This document shows, piece after piece, positions 1,243 to 9,289 of a stretch of 9,289 bases of DNA; the first letter of the stretch is position 1; each line of letters opens with the position of its first letter. This DNA is from a virus. Taxonomy: Duplodnaviria; Heunggongvirae; Uroviricota; Caudoviricetes. Where the stretch lies: IMG/VR virus record IMGVR_UViG_2537561823_000013; one strand, 5' to 3'. Made by a program: the position numbers and the translations under genes. The notes under the pieces were generated by a model. The model made no database searches and had not been told where the DNA came from. It saw nothing but the letters and a program-made list of their open reading frames with translations.

Positions 1243-1355
1243 CTGTACAAAAAACCAGTACAACCAGTGCAAACCATGCTAAACCATCGTATAATCGCCT
1301 ATCTCCTCAACAGACAAGGAAAAACCCGACTCATGAGAAATCGAGATTTATTGAA

Positions 1356-3623: not shown

Positions 3624-3911
3624 ATGAAACAGAAAATTTCTGGCTTTACTGCCAGCGGCCCCGCTCGGCCTGAAATCCGCCCCGGCGATATTTTCCGGGA
3701 TAACTATGGCGGCACGGTAACGATAAAAGGCGTGGCAGAACGGCGCATCACTTACCGCCGTGATGGCTACGAATATGACTGCGTGATGCCTGTTTATCAG
3801 TTCCGGCGTGATTTCACGCTGGTGGGCCATCGTAAAGCCGTAAATCAGAAACGTGCAGCAAGTCATATCCGCAAAATTCGTGAAATGCTGGTCGCAGGGG
3901 GTAAAAAATGA
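3624..3911 (+). CDS. hypothetical protein (95 aa)
   Basis: Open frame in operon context. Its stop overlaps the helicase start (ATGA at 3908-3911). Confidence 0.6.
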   Translation: MKQKISGFTASGPARPEIRPGDIFRDNYGGTVTIKGVAERRITYRRDGYEYDCVMPVYQFRRDFTLVGHRKAVNQKRAASHIRKIREMLVAGGKK

Positions 3912-5314
3912 AACTGGCACCGAACGTAAAACTGTTACCGAAAGATAAACACACTGAGGCGGTTATTTTTGCGGGTGATAATGCTCACTCCTTTGCAGAA
4001 CATTACATGATTGCACAGGCCAAAAAAGCAGGCGATCCCATCCCTCCGGTTTACCTGGGCCGTTATCAGTTAAGCGAACTGGACAACCTGCAGATTGTTG
4101 ATGAGGGGCGATACAGGGTAACGGTGATACGCGCCGGAAATATTGACGAAGCGCAGCTGTTAACCATAGCGACAAAACTGGCGATCGCCGGAGTCCAGGA
4201 AGCGCGGCTGCTTTCTGAAAACTTCGAATTACTGGAGAAATGGACCGACCAGCTTCCACGGCTACGGGAGACATGGGAGAGAGGGGAAAGCCTGATCATG
4301 AATGGAGGAAAACAAAAAATCACGCTACCGATTTCATGGGGTTCTGAGGGATTCGACGCGCAGCAAAGCTACGTAATTAAGGGGCTTATTCCGGCTGAAT
4401 CATTATGCAGCACCTACGGGGCCAGCGGTTCTTATAAATCGTTCCTGGCTATTTCCTGGTCGTGCCATGTTGCCACAGGTATGGCATGGGGAGGCCGCAG
4501 GGTAAGTAAGGGCGCGGTTATCTATATCGCTGGCGAAGGCAGTATGGGCGTAAAACGCCGCGTTAAGGCGTGGGAGATAACCCACGACAAGGTGGTTACG
4601 GATTTGTGCATCGTTAACGCGCCTGTCTTCCCTGCATCGCCTGACTATGTGGAGCAGGTTATCAGGACCGCCGGATTAGTGCAGGACAGAACGGGCGAAA
4701 GGGTGCGGATGATTGTCATTGACACGCTGGCCCGTTGCTTTGGTGGTCATGATGAAAATGACTCCCGCGACATGGGGGCGTTTATCCAGGGGTGTGACGC
4801 GATAAAGCAGGCCACGGGGGCCACGGTTCTGGTTGTGCATCATTCCGGCAAGGATGAGACGAAAGGGGCGCGGGGTTCCAGTGCATTCCGTGCGGCGCTT
4901 GATGCTGAGTTCCGAATCAGTCGGGAACATTCAGAGGCTACGGCGCTGGTTGCAGCATGTACGAAGATGAAGGACGCGGAGGAGCCAAAAGAAAGCGCCT
5001 ACGACCTTAAGAGCGTGGAGGTATTTACGGATCCTGAGGGTGAAGAAATCGTGTCCATGGTGGTGATTGACGTTCCCCGCGCCCCTGCTGAACTGGAGCG
5101 CATAGAGGAGGCCGGGAACAAGACGGAAAATCACACGGCTTTATGGGGTTGTATCCGGTCACGTATACAGCATGGTGATAAATGCACGATCCCGCTGCTA
5201 CGTGATGACATGAAAAAGCTGGGATATGACACAAAACACCTTAAACGATGGTTAGCCAAACTGGAAAAAGACGGCGTGATTTGCGTCGATGGGGATGATG
5301 TTCACCCACTGTAA
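3908..5314 (+). CDS. RepA-type (RecA-fold, AAA_25-like) replicative helicase / replication initiator with C-terminal putative DNA-binding domain
   Basis: 468 aa. P-loop-like TYGASGSYKSF, Walker B RMIVIDTLARCF, and VLVVHHSGKDETKGARGSSAF typical of the RepA/DnaB-like plasmid and satellite helicase family. SD aggggg sits about 9 nt upstream. No zinc-finger or Toprim primase signature was seen in the N-terminal 150 aa. Confidence 0.85.
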   Translation: MKLAPNVKLLPKDKHTEAVIFAGDNAHSFAEHYMIAQAKKAGDPIPPVYLGRYQLSELDNLQIVDEGRYRVTVIRAGNIDEAQLLTIATKLAIAGVQEARLLSENFELLEKWTDQLPRLRETWERGESLIMNGGKQKITLPISWGSEGFDAQQSYVIKGLIPAESLCSTYGASGSYKSFLAISWSCHVATGMAWGGRRVSKGAVIYIAGEGSMGVKRRVKAWEITHDKVVTDLCIVNAPVFPASPDYVEQVIRTAGLVQDRTGERVRMIVIDTLARCFGGHDENDSRDMGAFIQGCDAIKQATGATVLVVHHSGKDETKGARGSSAFRAALDAEFRISREHSEATALVAACTKMKDAEEPKESAYDLKSVEVFTDPEGEEIVSMVVIDVPRAPAELERIEEAGNKTENHTALWGCIRSRIQHGDKCTIPLLRDDMKKLGYDTKHLKRWLAKLEKDGVICVDGDDVHPL

Positions 5315-5514
5315 AAAGTGGGCGTTAAAAGTGGGAATAGTGGGTAATTTAACTGGAATTTAACAAAATCGCCCACTTTCCCACGTGTATACATCCCAAA
5401 AAGTGGGCACTAAAAAAATTCTTATGAAACAGTACGATATAAAACCACAAAATCCCAGGTGGGACGAAGTGGGAAACCATGAAAAGTGGGTAGAAAAAGT
5501 GGGCACAGGTGGGC
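5303..5514. repeat. iteron array with AT-rich spacer; candidate replication origin
   Basis: Core (A)AGTGGG(N) occurs as direct copies starting at 5316, 5329, 5338, 5401, 5457, 5467, 5484, 5497 and 5507. Inverted copies (CCCAC) are at 5303-5310, 5371-5378 and 5379-5384. An AT-rich stretch at 5409-5456 separates the two clusters. The array begins inside the last codons of the helicase gene. Confidence 0.65.
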
Positions 5515-5516
5515 GC

Positions 5517-5768
5517 ATGACCAGAAAAACCAGAGATAAGACAGCACCAAAATATCGCGCATTAGACATGACAGAGCACGCCTTAAAGGTGGCAATCAGA
5601 ACGATAGACCGCCACGCGGGGGAAGGATACGCGAAAGCACATCCCGAACTGATAAGCGCATTCATGACCACGACGGCGGCAAATTTTGCCACGCTGACAG
5701 AGCGGGAGATTGCGGAAGCTGAACAGGTGACAACCATCAACGTTAAAACCGGAGAGCAGACAGCATGA
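5517..5768 (+). CDS. hypothetical protein (83 aa), start trimmed to exclude the iteron-encoded N-terminus
   Basis: The ORF track starts at 5385, but codons 5385-5516 are the iterons themselves (repeated KVG/EVG/KWV). ATG 5517 follows aggtgg. The stop overlaps the ssb start (ATGA at 5765-5768). Coding status is uncertain. Confidence 0.4.
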   Translation: MTRKTRDKTAPKYRALDMTEHALKVAIRTIDRHAGEGYAKAHPELISAFMTTTAANFATLTEREIAEAEQVTTINVKTGEQTA

Positions 5769-6187
5769 CAGCACAGATAGCAGCTTACGGTCGGCTGGTG
5801 GCTGACCCGCAGTTAAAGACCACCAGCAAAGGGACACAAATGGCGATGGCGGGTATGGCGGTTCCCCTGCCGTGCAGCCAGGCAGATGACGGAACGGCGA
5901 CGATGTGGTTATCTGTCCTGGCGTTTGGCAGACAGGCCGACGCACTGGCAAAACACCACAAAGGCGAACTCCTGAGCGTGGCGGGTAACATGCAGGTGAG
6001 CCAGTGGACAGGCCAGAACGGCAAAACGCGGCAGGGCTGGCAGGTTATCGCAGATAGTGTAATCAGTGCCAGAACGGCGCGACCGGGCGGCAAAAAAGGT
6101 CAACAGGGCCAGGCCACTGACGCATTGAACAGGGCAAAACAACAGTCAGGGAATGATGAACCGTACGGCGATAATATACCGTTTTAA
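5765..6187 (+). CDS. ssb: single-stranded DNA-binding protein (SSB family, OB fold) with C-terminal ...DNIPF tip
   Basis: 140 aa. WLSVLAFGRQADALAKHHKGELLSVAGNMQVSQWTGQNGKTRQGWQVIADSV aligns by eye with E. coli SSB [52 protein letters not shown]. The C-terminus DEPYGDNIPF resembles the canonical DDDIPF tip. SD ggagag lies 9 nt upstream. Confidence 0.8.
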   Translation: MTAQIAAYGRLVADPQLKTTSKGTQMAMAGMAVPLPCSQADDGTATMWLSVLAFGRQADALAKHHKGELLSVAGNMQVSQWTGQNGKTRQGWQVIADSVISARTARPGGKKGQQGQATDALNRAKQQSGNDEPYGDNIPF

Positions 6188-6203: not shown

Positions 6204-6232
6204 ATGCCGGAAAAAAATAGATTTTCCGGCAT
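6204..6232. terminator. strong hairpin at the replication/morphogenesis boundary; possible terminator, better formed for the minus strand
   Basis: atgccgg (6204-6210) pairs with ccggcat (6226-6232), extendable through A/T pairs (ATGCCGGAAAA / TTTTCCGGCAT). A T-rich tract follows only on the minus-strand transcript (tttttgtttg), not on the plus strand. Confidence 0.4.
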
Positions 6233-6397
6233 GCTACATAAATCCCGACCAAAGGAAGTAAATACATTAACACGAATTATCAGCACTGAAGTTGTCACGG
6301 CAGATTTTATACAACATTGCACTTGGTTGCATGTATTCGCATAGCAGACATCGGTAATAGAATATATTCACAATTATTTGTAATGAATGTAAAGAGG

Positions 6398-7444
6398 ATG
6401 AGTATGGTTGATTTATATTCGCCTACACAGCTTGTGCAGGTGGCTAATGCTGAAGATGTGCAAAAAAAACTAAATGCGTTGTTTACCAGTTTGTTTTTCA
6501 CTCGCTCGGTAATGTTTGAATCGAGAGACATTATTCTTGATACGATCGACGATCCAAATATCCCGATCGCGGCGTTTTGCTCTCCTATGGTGGGCAGTAA
6601 AGTTTCACGAGATGAGGGATACGAATCAAAAACAATTCGCCCAGGCTATATGAAACCGAAAAGCAGTATTGATCCAAATAAGTTAGCTGTGCGCCCTGCT
6701 GGTGTATCACCTGAACAATACAATGCTTTTGGAGCGCGTAATATTAAAGTTAAACAGGCGATTGTAAATCAGGCTAAAGCTATACGTGCACGTATTGAAT
6801 GGATTGCTGTTCAGGCAATCACAACGGGGAAAAATATCATTGAGGGCGATGGGATTGAACGTTATGAACTGGACTGGAATATAAAACCACAAAATATTAT
6901 CACGCAGTCTGGCGGTGCTGAGTGGTCAGGTAAGGATAAAGAAACTTTTGATCCAAATGATGATATTGAGAGCTACGCAGAATTTAGTGAGGGCGTCACT
7001 AATATCATCATTATGGGCGGTAATGTATGGAAGAAATACCGTTCATTCAGAGCGATAAAAGAGGCTCTGGATACCCGTCGTGGTTCTAATTCCGAACTGG
7101 AAACGGCCCTTAAAGACCTTGGTGATTCGGTGAGTTTTAAAGGGTATATGGGCGATGTTGCGATTGTTGTTTACAGCGGACGTTATACCGACGAGGACGG
7201 AACTGAAAAACATTTCCTTGATCCTGATTTGATGGTGCTTGGCAATACGGCTCTTCAGGGGATTGTCGCCTATGGCGGTATTCAGGATCCGGAGCTAATC
7301 CGAATGGGGCTGACTAAAGCCGAACTTGCACCGAAAAACTATATTGTGCCTGGTGATCCGGCTATTGAGTACGTACAAACGCACTCTGCACCACAGCCAA
7401 TACCGGCCCGCATCAATCGTTTTGTTACCGTTCGCATTGGCTAA
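6398..7444 (+). CDS. major capsid protein, phage lambda gpE family (HK97 fold)
   Basis: Long collinear similarity to lambda gpE as recalled, for example NIITQSGGAEWSGKDKETFDPNDDIESYA...FRAIKEALDTRRGSNSELETALKDLG...GYMGDVAIVVYSG...MVLGNTALQGIVAYGGIQD versus lambda NITQSGGTEWSKRDKSTYDPTDDIEAYA...FKAVKEKLDTRRGSNSELETAVKDLG...GMYGDVAIVVYSG...MVLGNTQARGLRTYGCIQD. Start is MSMVD (6398), mirroring the lambda E MSM N-terminus; the SD aagagg (6392-6397) would favour ATG 6404. The ORF-track start 6317 was rejected. Confidence 0.9.
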   Translation: MSMVDLYSPTQLVQVANAEDVQKKLNALFTSLFFTRSVMFESRDIILDTIDDPNIPIAAFCSPMVGSKVSRDEGYESKTIRPGYMKPKSSIDPNKLAVRPAGVSPEQYNAFGARNIKVKQAIVNQAKAIRARIEWIAVQAITTGKNIIEGDGIERYELDWNIKPQNIITQSGGAEWSGKDKETFDPNDDIESYAEFSEGVTNIIIMGGNVWKKYRSFRAIKEALDTRRGSNSELETALKDLGDSVSFKGYMGDVAIVVYSGRYTDEDGTEKHFLDPDLMVLGNTALQGIVAYGGIQDPELIRMGLTKAELAPKNYIVPGDPAIEYVQTHSAPQPIPARINRFVTVRIG

Positions 7445-7453
7445 GGGGGAGCA

Positions 7454-7795
7454 ATGGCTACTCATTACACTGAACTCATGTCTGGTACTGAAGCACTGGT
7501 TACTACGCTGGGGATATTTTCAGCCAATAAAGGGGTAATACCTGCGTTTACGCCACTGATGCAGGAAGATGCAACTGGTGCGCTAGTGGTATGGGATGGA
7601 ACGAGCGCAGGCAAAGCGGTTTATGTTTCCGCTGTACAAATCGACACAGCGAAAAAAACACAGGCACAGGTTTATAAGACAGGTGTTTTAAATGTTGATG
7701 CTCTGAACTGGCCTGAGTCTGTAAGAGAACTGTCGGCAAAGGTTGCCGCGTTTGTTGGCTCAGGTATTTCTGTTCAGCCGCTGGCTCGTGTGTAA
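7454..7795 (+). CDS. head decoration protein, phage lambda gpD family
   Basis: 113 aa. TPLMQEDATGALVVWDGTSAGKAVYVSAV...YKTGVLNVDALNWPES...AAFVGSGISV matches recalled lambda gpD [29 protein letters not shown]...YKSGTFRYEDVLWPEA...TAFAGTAISIV. SD aaggggga lies 5 nt upstream. Confidence 0.85.
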   Translation: MATHYTELMSGTEALVTTLGIFSANKGVIPAFTPLMQEDATGALVVWDGTSAGKAVYVSAVQIDTAKKTQAQVYKTGVLNVDALNWPESVRELSAKVAAFVGSGISVQPLARV

Positions 7796-7806
7796 AGGGG
7801 GATACA

Positions 7807-8190
7807 ATGCAGAATCATTACAATGACCTTAAGCCAATTGCCGAAATGATGTATCCGGATCCAGCAGTAGAGGAATTAAAGGCTATTGCTGACAAAATGC
7901 GTTTAAGTGAACGCCTTGTTGATATGAATCAGGTGATGGAACTTACTACCCTTAGCCGTCGCACATTGCTAAACCTTGAGGCTCGTGGAGAGTTCCCCGA
8001 ACGCGTACAGGTTACGGAAGGGCGTAAGGCCTGGTATTTAAGTGAAGTGATCGACTGGATAAACAATATTCCTCGAGCTTCTGAATATTGCCGCGTACCT
8101 GTCCCCAAAAAGCCAGATGCGGCGCTATGCCTCAAGATTGAGCGTGTACGTCGCAATGCACGGGATGGTCGCTATAAGTTGATTGGTTGA
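7807..8190 (+). CDS. AlpA/Xis-like HTH domain protein with N-terminal extension (second AlpA-like gene in the element)
   Basis: 127 aa. MELTTLSRRTLLNLEARGEFPERVQVTEGRKAWYLSEVIDWI fits the AlpA-family HTH pattern, preceded by about 40 aa of unrelated sequence. SD agggggat lies 5 nt upstream. It sits between the decoration gene and cos. Confidence 0.7.
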   Translation: MQNHYNDLKPIAEMMYPDPAVEELKAIADKMRLSERLVDMNQVMELTTLSRRTLLNLEARGEFPERVQVTEGRKAWYLSEVIDWINNIPRASEYCRVPVPKKPDAALCLKIERVRRNARDGRYKLIG

Positions 8191-8218
8191 TGAAATTAGG
8201 GCCCGTTCTGGCTGGCGG

Positions 8219-8280
8219 GGCCTTTCCGGCGATCCGGCAGGCTACGGGGCGGCGACCTTGCGGTTTTTCGCTATTTATGA
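8219..8280 (+). other. lambda-type cos site: cosQ-like flank, cosN with 12-nt cohesive-end sequence, and conserved first 22 nt of the lambda left end
   Basis: 8247-8258 GGGCGGCGACCT is the lambda cohesive-end sequence. 8247-8280 GGGCGGCGACCTTGCGGTTTTTCGCTATTTATGA differs at 2 of 34 positions from the lambda left end as I recall it (GGGCGGCGACCTCGCGGGTTTTCGCTATTTATGA). 8219-8246 GGCCTTTCCGGCGATCCGGCAGGCTACG differs at 4 of 28 positions from the recalled lambda right end (GTCCTTTCCGGTGATCCGACAGGTTACG). Confidence 0.8.
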
Positions 8281-8391
8281 GCTTTTTCAGGGTGGTGGTG
8301 GTGGTTTTGTTGTTTGTTCTATCTCCATGAATGAAAAGGGAAAGATAACACCAACACACCAACCTGAAACCTTAACTAAGTGGGGATATTG
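8281..8391 (+). repeat. divergent cosB-like region with short repeats between cosN and terS; candidate TerS binding sites
   Basis: (GGT)5 at 8291-8305 followed by GTT/TTG-rich tttgttgtttgtt. Tandem CACCAACA / CACCAACC at 8349-8364 is roughly the inverted counterpart. The sequence no longer matches the recalled lambda cosB (AAATTTTCCGGTTTAAGGCGTTTCCGTTCTTCTTCG...). Confidence 0.4.
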
Positions 8392-8934
8392 ATGAAATCG
8401 CACCTGATGAACAAAAAAACTATGGCGCAAAGCTGCCGCGTAAGTGCGACAGCGTTCGACAAGTGGGGAGTGACTCCCGTTGAGCGTAAAGGCCGTGAGG
8501 CGTTTTATGATGTTGCTAGCGTGATAGACAATAGGGTTAACAATGCAATTAACCAACTTACAAACGACAAAGGCGAGATTGATGATGATGAACTTTTACG
8601 CGTAAGAATCAGATTAATGACGGCCCAGGCGGAAGCGCAGGAACTTAAAAACGAGCGCGAACGCGGCGAGGTGATTGATACAAAGTTTTGCATCTACGCG
8701 ATTTCAAAGCTGGCACAACAAATTTCTTCAATCATGGACAGCCTCCCGCTCACAATGCAAAGGCGCTTTCCCGATATAAGGCCGTATATGCTGGATGAAC
8801 TAAAAAGGGAAATAGTCAAAGCATGTAACGCATGTGCAAGACTTGACGAAAACCTGCCACAGATACTGGCTGATTACCTGATGGAAACTACCGGAAACGT
8901 GCCTGAGAAGTTGCTACAGAACAAAGGCGAGTAA
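8392..8934 (+). CDS. terminase small subunit, phage lambda Nu1 family
   Basis: RLMTAQAEAQELKNERERGEVIDTKFCIYAISKLAQQISSIMDSLPLTMQRRFPDI...LKREIVKACNACARLDENLPQILADYL matches recalled lambda Nu1 RLTRAQADAQELKNARDSAEVVETAFCTFVLSRIAGEIASILDGLPLSVQRRFPEL...LKRDIIKAMNKAAALDELIPGLLSEYI. The N-terminus aligns with the Nu1 winged-HTH. The ORF-track start is a GTG at 8380; ATG 8392 has a GGGGA SD 5 nt upstream; ATG 8407 is an alternative. Confidence 0.85.
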   Translation: MKSHLMNKKTMAQSCRVSATAFDKWGVTPVERKGREAFYDVASVIDNRVNNAINQLTNDKGEIDDDELLRVRIRLMTAQAEAQELKNERERGEVIDTKFCIYAISKLAQQISSIMDSLPLTMQRRFPDIRPYMLDELKREIVKACNACARLDENLPQILADYLMETTGNVPEKLLQNKGE

Positions 8935-9007: not shown

Positions 9008-9289
9008 ATGACTGAAGCCGAACTACTGGGATTAATCCGCCGCGTCGTCGGAATCAGCCAGCAGCATGACGAACAGGCCACACAGCCGGACAGCGTGACC
9101 GCTGAAAATTATGTGCGTGTTGTTGCTGAGGTGATGCGCCGTGATGGTATTGAGCTTAACGGCGTGGATATGCGCAACATACGAACAAGAGTCCTTGAGT
9201 TGCTGGCATACCGTCGCCGTTCTCAACAACGGAGGGAGAGCGCGAAAAATACTTACCAGTGGAAGAAGCCGGAACGGTTGCGGCGGTAG
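9008..9289 (+). CDS. hypothetical protein, 3' end runs off the window; not recognisably a lambda gpA-type large terminase N-terminus
   Basis: 93+ aa open frame with SD gaggg 4 nt upstream. MTEAELLGLIRRVVGISQQHDEQ... shows no resemblance by eye to the lambda gpA N-terminus. It is separated from terS by a 73-nt gap rather than overlapping it. Confidence 0.5.
   Translation: MTEAELLGLIRRVVGISQQHDEQATQPDSVTAENYVRVVAEVMRRDGIELNGVDMRNIRTRVLELLAYRRRSQQRRESAKNTYQWKKPERLRR

Follow-up and report, generated by a model that had tools for sequence, protein, structure and literature searches.

A winged-helix AlpA-family protein at the end of a portable capsid cassette in Gram-negative phage satellites: a candidate cassette regulator

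Among the phage-inducible chromosomal islands (PICIs) of Gram-negative bacteria, the AlpA protein of EcCICFT073 has been shown experimentally to be a transcription activator, which autoregulates its own promoter (PMC6092414). The same family includes the excisionase of GIsul2 (PDB 8C3T), a protein of 73 amino acids (aa) encoded in an integrase module, as well as the product of a second alpA gene, alpA_1, in the E. coli PICI EcCIMP1, which lies far from int, is unneeded for the core cycle of the island and resembles the helper Xis of TorI type, which it can replace in part (PMC11773190). Capsid genes are present in 21 of the 29 reference Gram-negative PICIs (PMC10111431); deletion of either the capsid or the decoration gene of EcCICFT073 altered neither transfer nor interference (PMC6092414). 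Here we analyse a stretch of 9,289 nucleotides (nt) from the IMG/VR record IMGVR_UViG_2537561823_000013, hereafter called the window, and in particular its gene at 7807-8190, the product of which is a second AlpA-family protein lying at the end of a capsid cassette. The window is 100% identical to a chromosomal island found in six complete E. coli genomes at the tRNA-Pro site beside yejM, and, judged by the genes that it carries, it is a Gram-negative PICI of the kind of EcCICFT073. We tentatively propose, with a probability of about 45%, that 7807-8190 encodes a dedicated transcription regulator of the portable capsid cassette, the operator of which would be a repeat array upstream of the capsid gene.

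The gene lies on the + strand, with its ATG at 7807 and its stop codon at 8188-8190, and encodes 127 aa. It starts 11 nt past the stop of the decoration gene at 7795 and is preceded by a ribosome-binding site of its own, GGGGGA. The initial annotation had recognised here an open reading frame (ORF) for an AlpA-like helix-turn-helix (HTH) protein, and both parts of this description are borne out. The Pfam family Phage_AlpA (PF05930) matches residues 36-85 with an E value of 1.4e-8 and 34.9 bits, against a gathering threshold of 21, and is present in all the listed homologues; moreover, PHROG 2790 matches residues 11-109 with an E value of 1.8e-48. The AlphaFold model, obtained with 28 homologues, contains helices at residues 40-47 and 51-59, a beta hairpin at 67-77 and a further helix at 78-87, all with predicted local distance difference test (pLDDT) values of 83-89. 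Hence, the protein is a member of PF05930 both by score and by its winged-HTH (wHTH) fold of Xis/MerR-like type. The wHTH core (residues 36-90, at 7912-8076) is flanked by an N-terminal extension (residues 1-35, at 7807-7911), modelled as two ill-defined helices, and by a C-terminal extension (residues 91-127, at 8077-8187), in which the model places a basic helix at residues 105-119. An unrelated N-terminal extension had been noted before, at a length of 40 residues that is closer to 35, while the conserved C-terminal extension of about 37 residues had gone unmentioned.

Homologues (n = 99), nearly all of 127 aa, are distributed across Enterobacterales, including the genera Escherichia, Enterobacter, Citrobacter, Salmonella, Klebsiella, Pluralibacter, Trabulsiella, Scandinavium and Buttiauxella. 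Where synonymous sites are unsaturated, the ratio of nonsynonymous to synonymous substitution rates (dN/dS) is 0.07-0.09 overall, with values of 0.02-0.05 for the core, 0.13-0.27 for the N-terminal extension and 0.09-0.20 for the C-terminal extension; between genera, synonymous sites are saturated and dN is low. By these measures 7807-8190 is a real conserved gene, the extensions of which are under purifying selection. The full-length architecture is narrowly distributed: a profile search among 1.84 billion representative proteins yielded about six clusters that span the extensions and 2283 further matches that cover the core only. A scan of species-representative genomes found four loci. No homologue was found by tblastn in 50,697 phage genomes, either at E <= 1e-5 or at E <= 1, and searches of NCBIfam with the protein and of Rfam with the whole window returned no match. 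In RefSeq the product is named 'helix-turn-helix transcriptional regulator'. Our literature searches found no paper describing the gene or its promoter array, nor any on 8C3T.

How does this protein compare with the AlpA proteins already characterised in PICIs? The window contains an allele of EcCICFT073 alpA at 1768-1974 (Pfam E value 5.6e-9), the canonical alpA that the initial annotation had placed next to int; the gene is there, but it lies 526 nt downstream of the integrase gene (1-1242) rather than adjacent to it. This first AlpA shares with the 7807-8190 protein the PF05930 domain, the wHTH fold and the satellite origin. However, the part in common is the 55-residue core alone, at 20% identity (hhalign probability 97.8), and the 7807-8190 protein, with its conserved N- and C-terminal extensions, has twice the length of PICI AlpA proteins, which are of about 65-75 aa. 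Moreover, its gene ends the capsid operon, 5.8 kb from int, and is inherited with the capsid gene, whereas PICI AlpA belongs to the int module. From these comparisons, the 7807-8190 protein is not the PICI master regulator, given its wrong module, wrong size and independent inheritance. A role as antiterminator by analogy with Pseudomonas AlpA was rejected too, the name alone being in common: the Pseudomonas protein has a 21Q-like fold of eight helices, with a C-terminal HTH, DNA-reading residues at 128-142 and an N-terminal ring entering the RNA exit channel (PMC9371919), as opposed to the three-helix wHTH with a beta wing of the 7807-8190 protein.

The evidence that carries our proposal comes from what travels with the gene. 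We compared the loci of homologues down to 45% identity (L002-L016 and L019-L022). In every locus examined, down to those of the remotest full-length relatives (P0100 and P0101), the order of capsid, decoration and 7807-8190 gene is kept. In the window, these correspond to a major capsid protein of the lambda E family (6404-7444, + strand, 346 aa), a head decoration protein of the lambda D family (7454-7795, + strand) and the AlpA-family protein. Across the loci, identity to the window is 72-87% for the capsid protein, 58-77% for the decoration protein and 45-74% for the 7807-8190 protein, but only 18-28% for the integrases and 23-31% for the first AlpA proteins, which are 22-35% identical among themselves. 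The integrases differ in type and in target site as well, the latter being tRNA-Pro, fis or, in 'helper-embedded' PICIs (PMC10111431), the capsid gene of a lambdoid prophage, and the replication proteins may be RepA-like helicases, D5-type primases or DUF927 proteins. Conversely, the int-alpA module of the window is found in IMG/VR contigs with this cassette, with a cassette of the EcCICFT073 type or with no capsid genes at all. Since the same int-alpA module is combined with different late cassettes, the capsid cassette is a module exchanged between satellites, around which int, the first AlpA, the replication module and the packaging gene (the satellite's own TerS, Rpp or none) are swapped freely.

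In the cassettes of EcCICFT073 type there is no separate intergenic promoter, and the capsid gene abuts the upstream ORF. In them, the slot of the 7807-8190 gene is occupied by a scaffold-like gene; in EcCICFT073 itself this is the unrelated c1501, of 137 aa (L006:2084-2497), which matches the Nu3/scaffold C-terminal part of the head maturation protease (phrog_53, 1e-8); the EcCICFT073 cassette therefore looks like one of capsid, decoration and scaffold. In the experimental work on this island, c1501 was treated as a neutral site for the tetA marker, and the marked island still transfers at 10^3-10^4 per ml (PMC6092414).

The region at 6233-6397, upstream of the capsid gene, had been singled out in the initial annotation, and it does hold a conserved phased array that is inherited with the gene. 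At 6307-6342, on the + strand, there are four direct repeats spaced by 10 bp, namely TTATAC at 6307, TTGCAC at 6317, TTGCAT at 6327 and TCGCAT at 6337; this is the candidate operator, and on that strand the window has no second array of its kind. It runs into a promoter-like element, P_E (6336-6363, + strand), composed of TTCGCA as a -35-like hexamer, a 16-nt spacer and TAGAAT, the -10 hexamer being at 6358-6363. When the 300 nt upstream of the capsid gene were aligned for 13 lineages, a common layout emerged: a GC hairpin, a short ATAACAG block, the array and then the -10 element. Every lineage with the gene has three to five direct repeats of the form TT(A/G)(C/T)A(C/T), exactly 10 bp apart, upstream of the capsid gene. 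Triple-repeat matches are expected 0.35 times in the 354 kb of fetched sequence after shuffling, whereas they are observed at the capsid-promoter position in most loci. In about 115 related satellites, the gene, the pair of capsid and decoration genes and the array-bearing promoter go together; both gene and array are present in 96 of the 98 loci having a capsid gene of the window type, and the array in none of the 81 loci with a cassette of the EcCICFT073 type.

In all 13 lineages, the repeats start 61, 51, 41 and 31 nt (within 2 nt) upstream of the -10 hexamer, while the distance from the -10 to the ATG ranges from 34 to 59 nt. This fixed register on one side and variable spacing on the other indicate that the array is a part of the promoter, its repeats lying on the same side of the helix. 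The proximal repeat abuts the -35 position, which in the aligned sequences is the geometry of class II activators. An extended -10 of the form TGnTAnnAT occurs at the aligned position in nine of the 13 lineages. Within the main clade of homologues the recognition helix, TTLSRRTLL, is invariant; in lineage L021 the protein reads TTLSRQTIL and the repeats are TTAGAC instead of TTGCAC, a possible case of co-variation between helix and repeats. Between the SSB gene (for a single-stranded DNA-binding protein) and the capsid promoter there is an 11-bp perfect inverted repeat (ATGCCGGAAAA / TTTTCCGGCAT, 6204-6232), at the position of which the relatives have a GC hairpin flanked by runs of A and T; its probable role is to shield the cassette from the replication operon.

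Small winged-helix proteins of the Xis/AlpA/MerR-like kind bind phased direct repeats head to tail, with sites about 10 bp apart, as in lambda Xis (X1-X1.5-X2), BldC and PrtN (P box), and PrtN activates operons for phage-derived structural proteins. The 7807-8190 protein resembles them in being a small wHTH protein accompanied by head-to-tail candidate sites at intervals of about 10 bp, which we propose that it binds. PrtN-named proteins are found among its fold matches, the fold similarity being generic, and Pfam results at E <= 0.1 contain no PrtN/PyocinActivator match. BldC has also served as the DNA-binding template for modelling RppC (PMC6739421).

From one satellite to the next the array persists, although the first AlpA, integrase and replication proteins are different ones. 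Of the DNA-binding proteins encoded by the satellites, the product of 7807-8190 alone accompanies it, and we therefore propose this protein as its binder. In the mechanism that we envisage, the wHTH core would bind the three to five repeats as monomers, head to tail, just upstream of the -35 of the capsid promoter, and the family-specific N- and C-terminal helices would make contacts with RNA polymerase, between adjacent monomers or of both sorts. The gene being the last of the operon under its putative control, the circuit would be autoregulatory, with positive feedback setting in once read-through or basal transcription has started the operon after helper induction. We infer the binding of the array by the protein and the sign of the regulation alike. 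As to the latter, we lean slightly towards activation, considering the analogy with PICI AlpA and the position of the repeats; autorepression retains a lesser but substantial standing owing to the frequency of the extended -10. Among the roles listed in the initial annotation, that of a late-gene activator is thus favoured by the comparative evidence, at least in the weaker form of a capsid-promoter regulator. The accompanying statement that the function cannot be chosen from sequence alone was fair for a single sequence, but the related loci allow the candidate functions to be ranked.

Several points weigh against a cassette regulator of this kind. The extended -10 seen in most lineages can work without an activator, so that the array might serve for repression or be the site of another factor, such as a host response regulator of the OmpR/PhoB type or a helper protein. 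Response regulators of this type use direct repeats of 10-11 bp near -40. If an activator is made from the last gene of the operon that it switches on, this operon must first be started by some other means. The -10 elements were picked from an alignment column, and the 179 loci are not independent, so that the contrast in co-inheritance is essentially one between two cassette lineages. The structural model is moderately confident outside the core, with a mean pLDDT of 68 and values of 40-57 for residues 1-30. Finally, the closest solved relative is an excisionase and not a transcription factor.

Two other assignments of repeats were tried and rejected. The array is not a replication origin: the iterons AAAAGTGGG sit at 5313-5510, and the array is conserved across differing replication modules. 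Nor is the array at 1253-1289 (reverse complement of TTGCACTGG) a second target of the 7807-8190 protein, since it travels with the int-alpA module under any late cassette; most likely, it is the operator of the first AlpA.

Among the alternatives, the one that survives best, even if we consider it unlikely, is that the 7807-8190 protein works in trans, with the helper phage or a protein partner as its target in place of the satellite. It could bind helper promoters or sequester a helper or host regulator, as TorI does with TorR, and the array would then be read by a host regulator of OmpR/PhoB type, by a helper protein or by the first AlpA. Direct repeats of 10 bp ending near -40 would suit response regulators with a winged helix as well. 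The form of the proposed operator in E. coli and near relatives, TTGCAC-N4-TTGCAT, includes the lambda CII box, TTGC-N6-TTGC, and the conservation of the extensions under purifying selection suggests partners beyond DNA. Satellites, furthermore, often carry interference functions in this region (PMC6739421). Yet array and gene are inherited as a unit while other satellite regulators vary, the proximal repeat lies 31 nt from the -10, unlike in CII-dependent promoters, and the repeats of three lineages, reading TTATAC or TTAGAC, contain no TTGC. On the same grounds, of geometry and of the TTGC missing from three lineages, the array was rejected as a lambda CII-dependent promoter. Among the late-region genes of EcCICFT073 expressed singly, only rppA blocked lambda (PMC6739421), although that island is without the 7807-8190 gene.

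Slightly less probable still, in our judgement, is a role of the 7807-8190 protein as an excisionase, that is, as the recombination directionality factor paired with the integrase of the satellite or as a substitute for the Xis of the helper prophage. The idea had been raised in the initial annotation and owes its standing to the nearest structure being an excisionase and to the second AlpA of EcCIMP1 backing up the helper Xis; besides, PHROG 2790 is annotated as 'excisionase and transcriptional regulator'. Lambda Xis also contacts Int via a C-terminal tail beyond its wHTH, a feature that could find its counterpart in the C-terminal extension. As the cognate of the integrase, however, the protein is disfavoured, for its sequence tracks the capsid and decoration proteins, and not the integrase, across at least five integrase and att types. 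The int module already includes the first AlpA, which varies with the module. No array of the P_E type was found near attL or attR of locus L001, where the P_E repeat form was sought, the arm-type repeats there being TAGCTAYACG. The related proteins differ from it in further respects: the GIsul2 excisionase has no extensions and sits in an integrase module, whereas 7807-8190 is unlinked to integrase type, and alpA_1 of EcCIMP1 ends its element and runs on the opposite strand, whereas 7807-8190 is co-oriented with the capsid operon. Finally, alpA_1 resembles a helper Xis, in contrast with the lack of homologues of the 7807-8190 protein in the phage genomes searched.

The role that had been most elaborated at the outset, that of a packaging accessory at cos, which would bend or mark the DNA as IHF does or redirect the terminase as Rpp proteins do, and would account for the position of the gene right before cos, appears improbable. 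The neighbourhood is as described: the gene lies between the D-like gene, from which it is separated by 11 nt, and a real cos, its stop codon being 57 nt before cosN, and in most loci it ends 30-90 nt before cosQ/cosN. The segment 8211-8290 (+ strand) aligns with the lambda cos junction, with a cosQ-like GGGGCCTTTCC at 8217-8227 and a 12-nt cohesive end, GGGCGGCGACCT, at 8247-8258 that is identical to that of lambda. It is followed by a satellite-specific cosB (8291-8367, + strand) with blocks GGTGGTGGTGGTGG-TTTTGTTGTTTG at 8291-8316 and ACACCAACACACCAACCTGA at 8348-8367, which are conserved only in loci having their own Nu1-like TerS and are unlinked to the 7807-8190 gene. Indeed, the gene is found alongside three unrelated kinds of cosB, namely the TerS type (with GGTGGTGGTGTTGTTG and AATACACCCACCTGA motifs), the Rpp type (L016) and a lambda-like type (L004 and L008), while identical kinds of TerS/Rpp and cos are present in the 81 loci without it. 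We conclude that the protein is neither required for, nor matched to, any given system of packaging recognition. Consistently, EcCICFT073 transfers efficiently without the gene (PMC6092414). In Pluralibacter (L013) cos is 446 nt downstream of the gene, behind a truncated rpp-like gene, and among the compared loci the stretch from the stop codon to cosQ shows no conserved sequence and no phased repeats.

The protein is also not an Rpp, as judged by the lack of homology, the different architecture and the co-occurrence of the two. It has no sequence similarity to Rpp (RppA/RppC, PDB 6HN7) or to the N-terminal domain of lambda Nu1, and a sequence search against solved structures returned 8c3t alone, though RppC was in the library. 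Rpp binds the N-terminal domain of the helper TerS as well as the satellite cosB, and the occurrence of the 7807-8190 gene irrespective of cosB type speaks against such binding. Rpp genes are found downstream of cos and encode an N-terminal wHTH (residues 1-64) with a C-terminal coiled-coil helix for dimerisation, whereas in the 7807-8190 protein the wHTH follows an extension (core at residues 36-90) and the gene is upstream of cos. In L016 a true Rpp homologue, 32% identical to RppA/c1503, is encoded by a separate gene co-occurring with the homologue of 7807-8190. Functional linkage of the gene to TerS or Rpp was rejected on the basis of independent assortment. An intrinsic terminator between gene and cos was considered as well, but is not significant in the window (z 0.10) and is clear only in some relatives, for example L010.

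Further observations concern the cos regions themselves. The cosB blocks GGTGGTGGTGG-TTTTGTTGTT and ACACCAACACACCAACCTGA are in roughly inverted orientation and represent candidate R sites for the TerS of the satellite. In the Rpp-type locus L016, one AACACACCCCACCACCACCAGG block stands in place of the TerS-type cosB pair. The loci at L004:8345-9276 and L008:9384-9650 have the same capsid cassette with a lambda-like cosB (TTTAAGGCGTTTCCGTTCTTCTTCG ... AAAGAAAGGAAA) and no gene for TerS or Rpp; satellites of this type presumably use the helper terminase unmodified. The truncated gene of Pluralibacter (L013:9033-9428) matches only the C-terminal two-thirds of RppA (35%), with an N-terminus that does not align with the RppA wHTH, and cos follows it.

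Least probable of all, and hardly to be expected, is cross-talk with the CII regulon of a lambdoid helper, in which either the satellite protein, produced along with the capsid proteins, would occupy helper CII boxes (pRE, pI, pAQ), disturbing helper Q/late expression or the lysis-lysogeny choice, or helper CII would turn on the capsid cassette of the satellite, which would then be a regulatory interface with the helper, beyond a set of spare capsid genes.

The comparisons show one widespread version of the PICI capsid genes to be a self-contained module, separately promoted and equipped with a DNA-binding protein, which passes between satellites whatever their integrase, replication module or packaging strategy. 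The gene and its four repeats offer a handle on what the capsid genes do in PICIs. Our results also call for caution in annotation: an AlpA-family match in a satellite need not be a master regulator or an excisionase, and schemes of the SatelliteFinder type, which use alpA as a core marker, will count genes of the 7807-8190 type too.

As to the remaining gene content of the island, the RepA-like helicase (3908-5314) is followed directly 3' by the replication origin (5313-5510), with at least eight copies of the iteron in both orientations, which overlaps in part the start of the next small ORF; the SSB gene is at 5765-6187. Past cos lie the gene for the satellite's own terminase small subunit, TerS, of the Nu1 family (8392-8934, + strand), which assorts independently of the 7807-8190 gene, and an ORF of 93 aa (9008-9289). 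RefSeq has a 69-aa hypothetical protein, WP_001440045, at 8183-8392, but this ORF, which spans cosQ, cosN and cosB, is unlikely to be a gene. The ORF list had the capsid gene starting at TTG 6317, within the repeat array; the start kept in all relatives is ATG 6404, which we adopt since the 346-aa product is conserved in all of them.

Just 3' of the int stop, at 1253-1295, four phased direct repeats (AACCAGTACA ACCAGTGCAA ACCATGCTAA ACCATCG) end in a perfect TATAAT, and their reverse complement (TTGCACTGGTTG) looks like the capsid-promoter repeats. In 24 IMG/VR contigs this block is kept with the int-alpA module, independently of the type of late cassette; it is probably the early promoter together with the operator of the first AlpA. 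The island continues for about 1.1 kb past the end of the window, up to attR near L001:14380 (approximately L001:14376-14395), and no gene is annotated in the segment L001:13290-14290. Both ends of the island (L001:3910-3935 and 14291-14316) bear a doubled motif, TTAGCTACACG/TTAGCTATACG, with further copies before int; by analogy with the doubled motif of helper-embedded PICIs, these are likely to be arm-type sites of the integrase. Lastly, the order of capsid and decoration genes in the satellite is the reverse of that in lambda, where D precedes E; the cassette therefore did not arise simply by capture of one block of a late operon like that of lambda.
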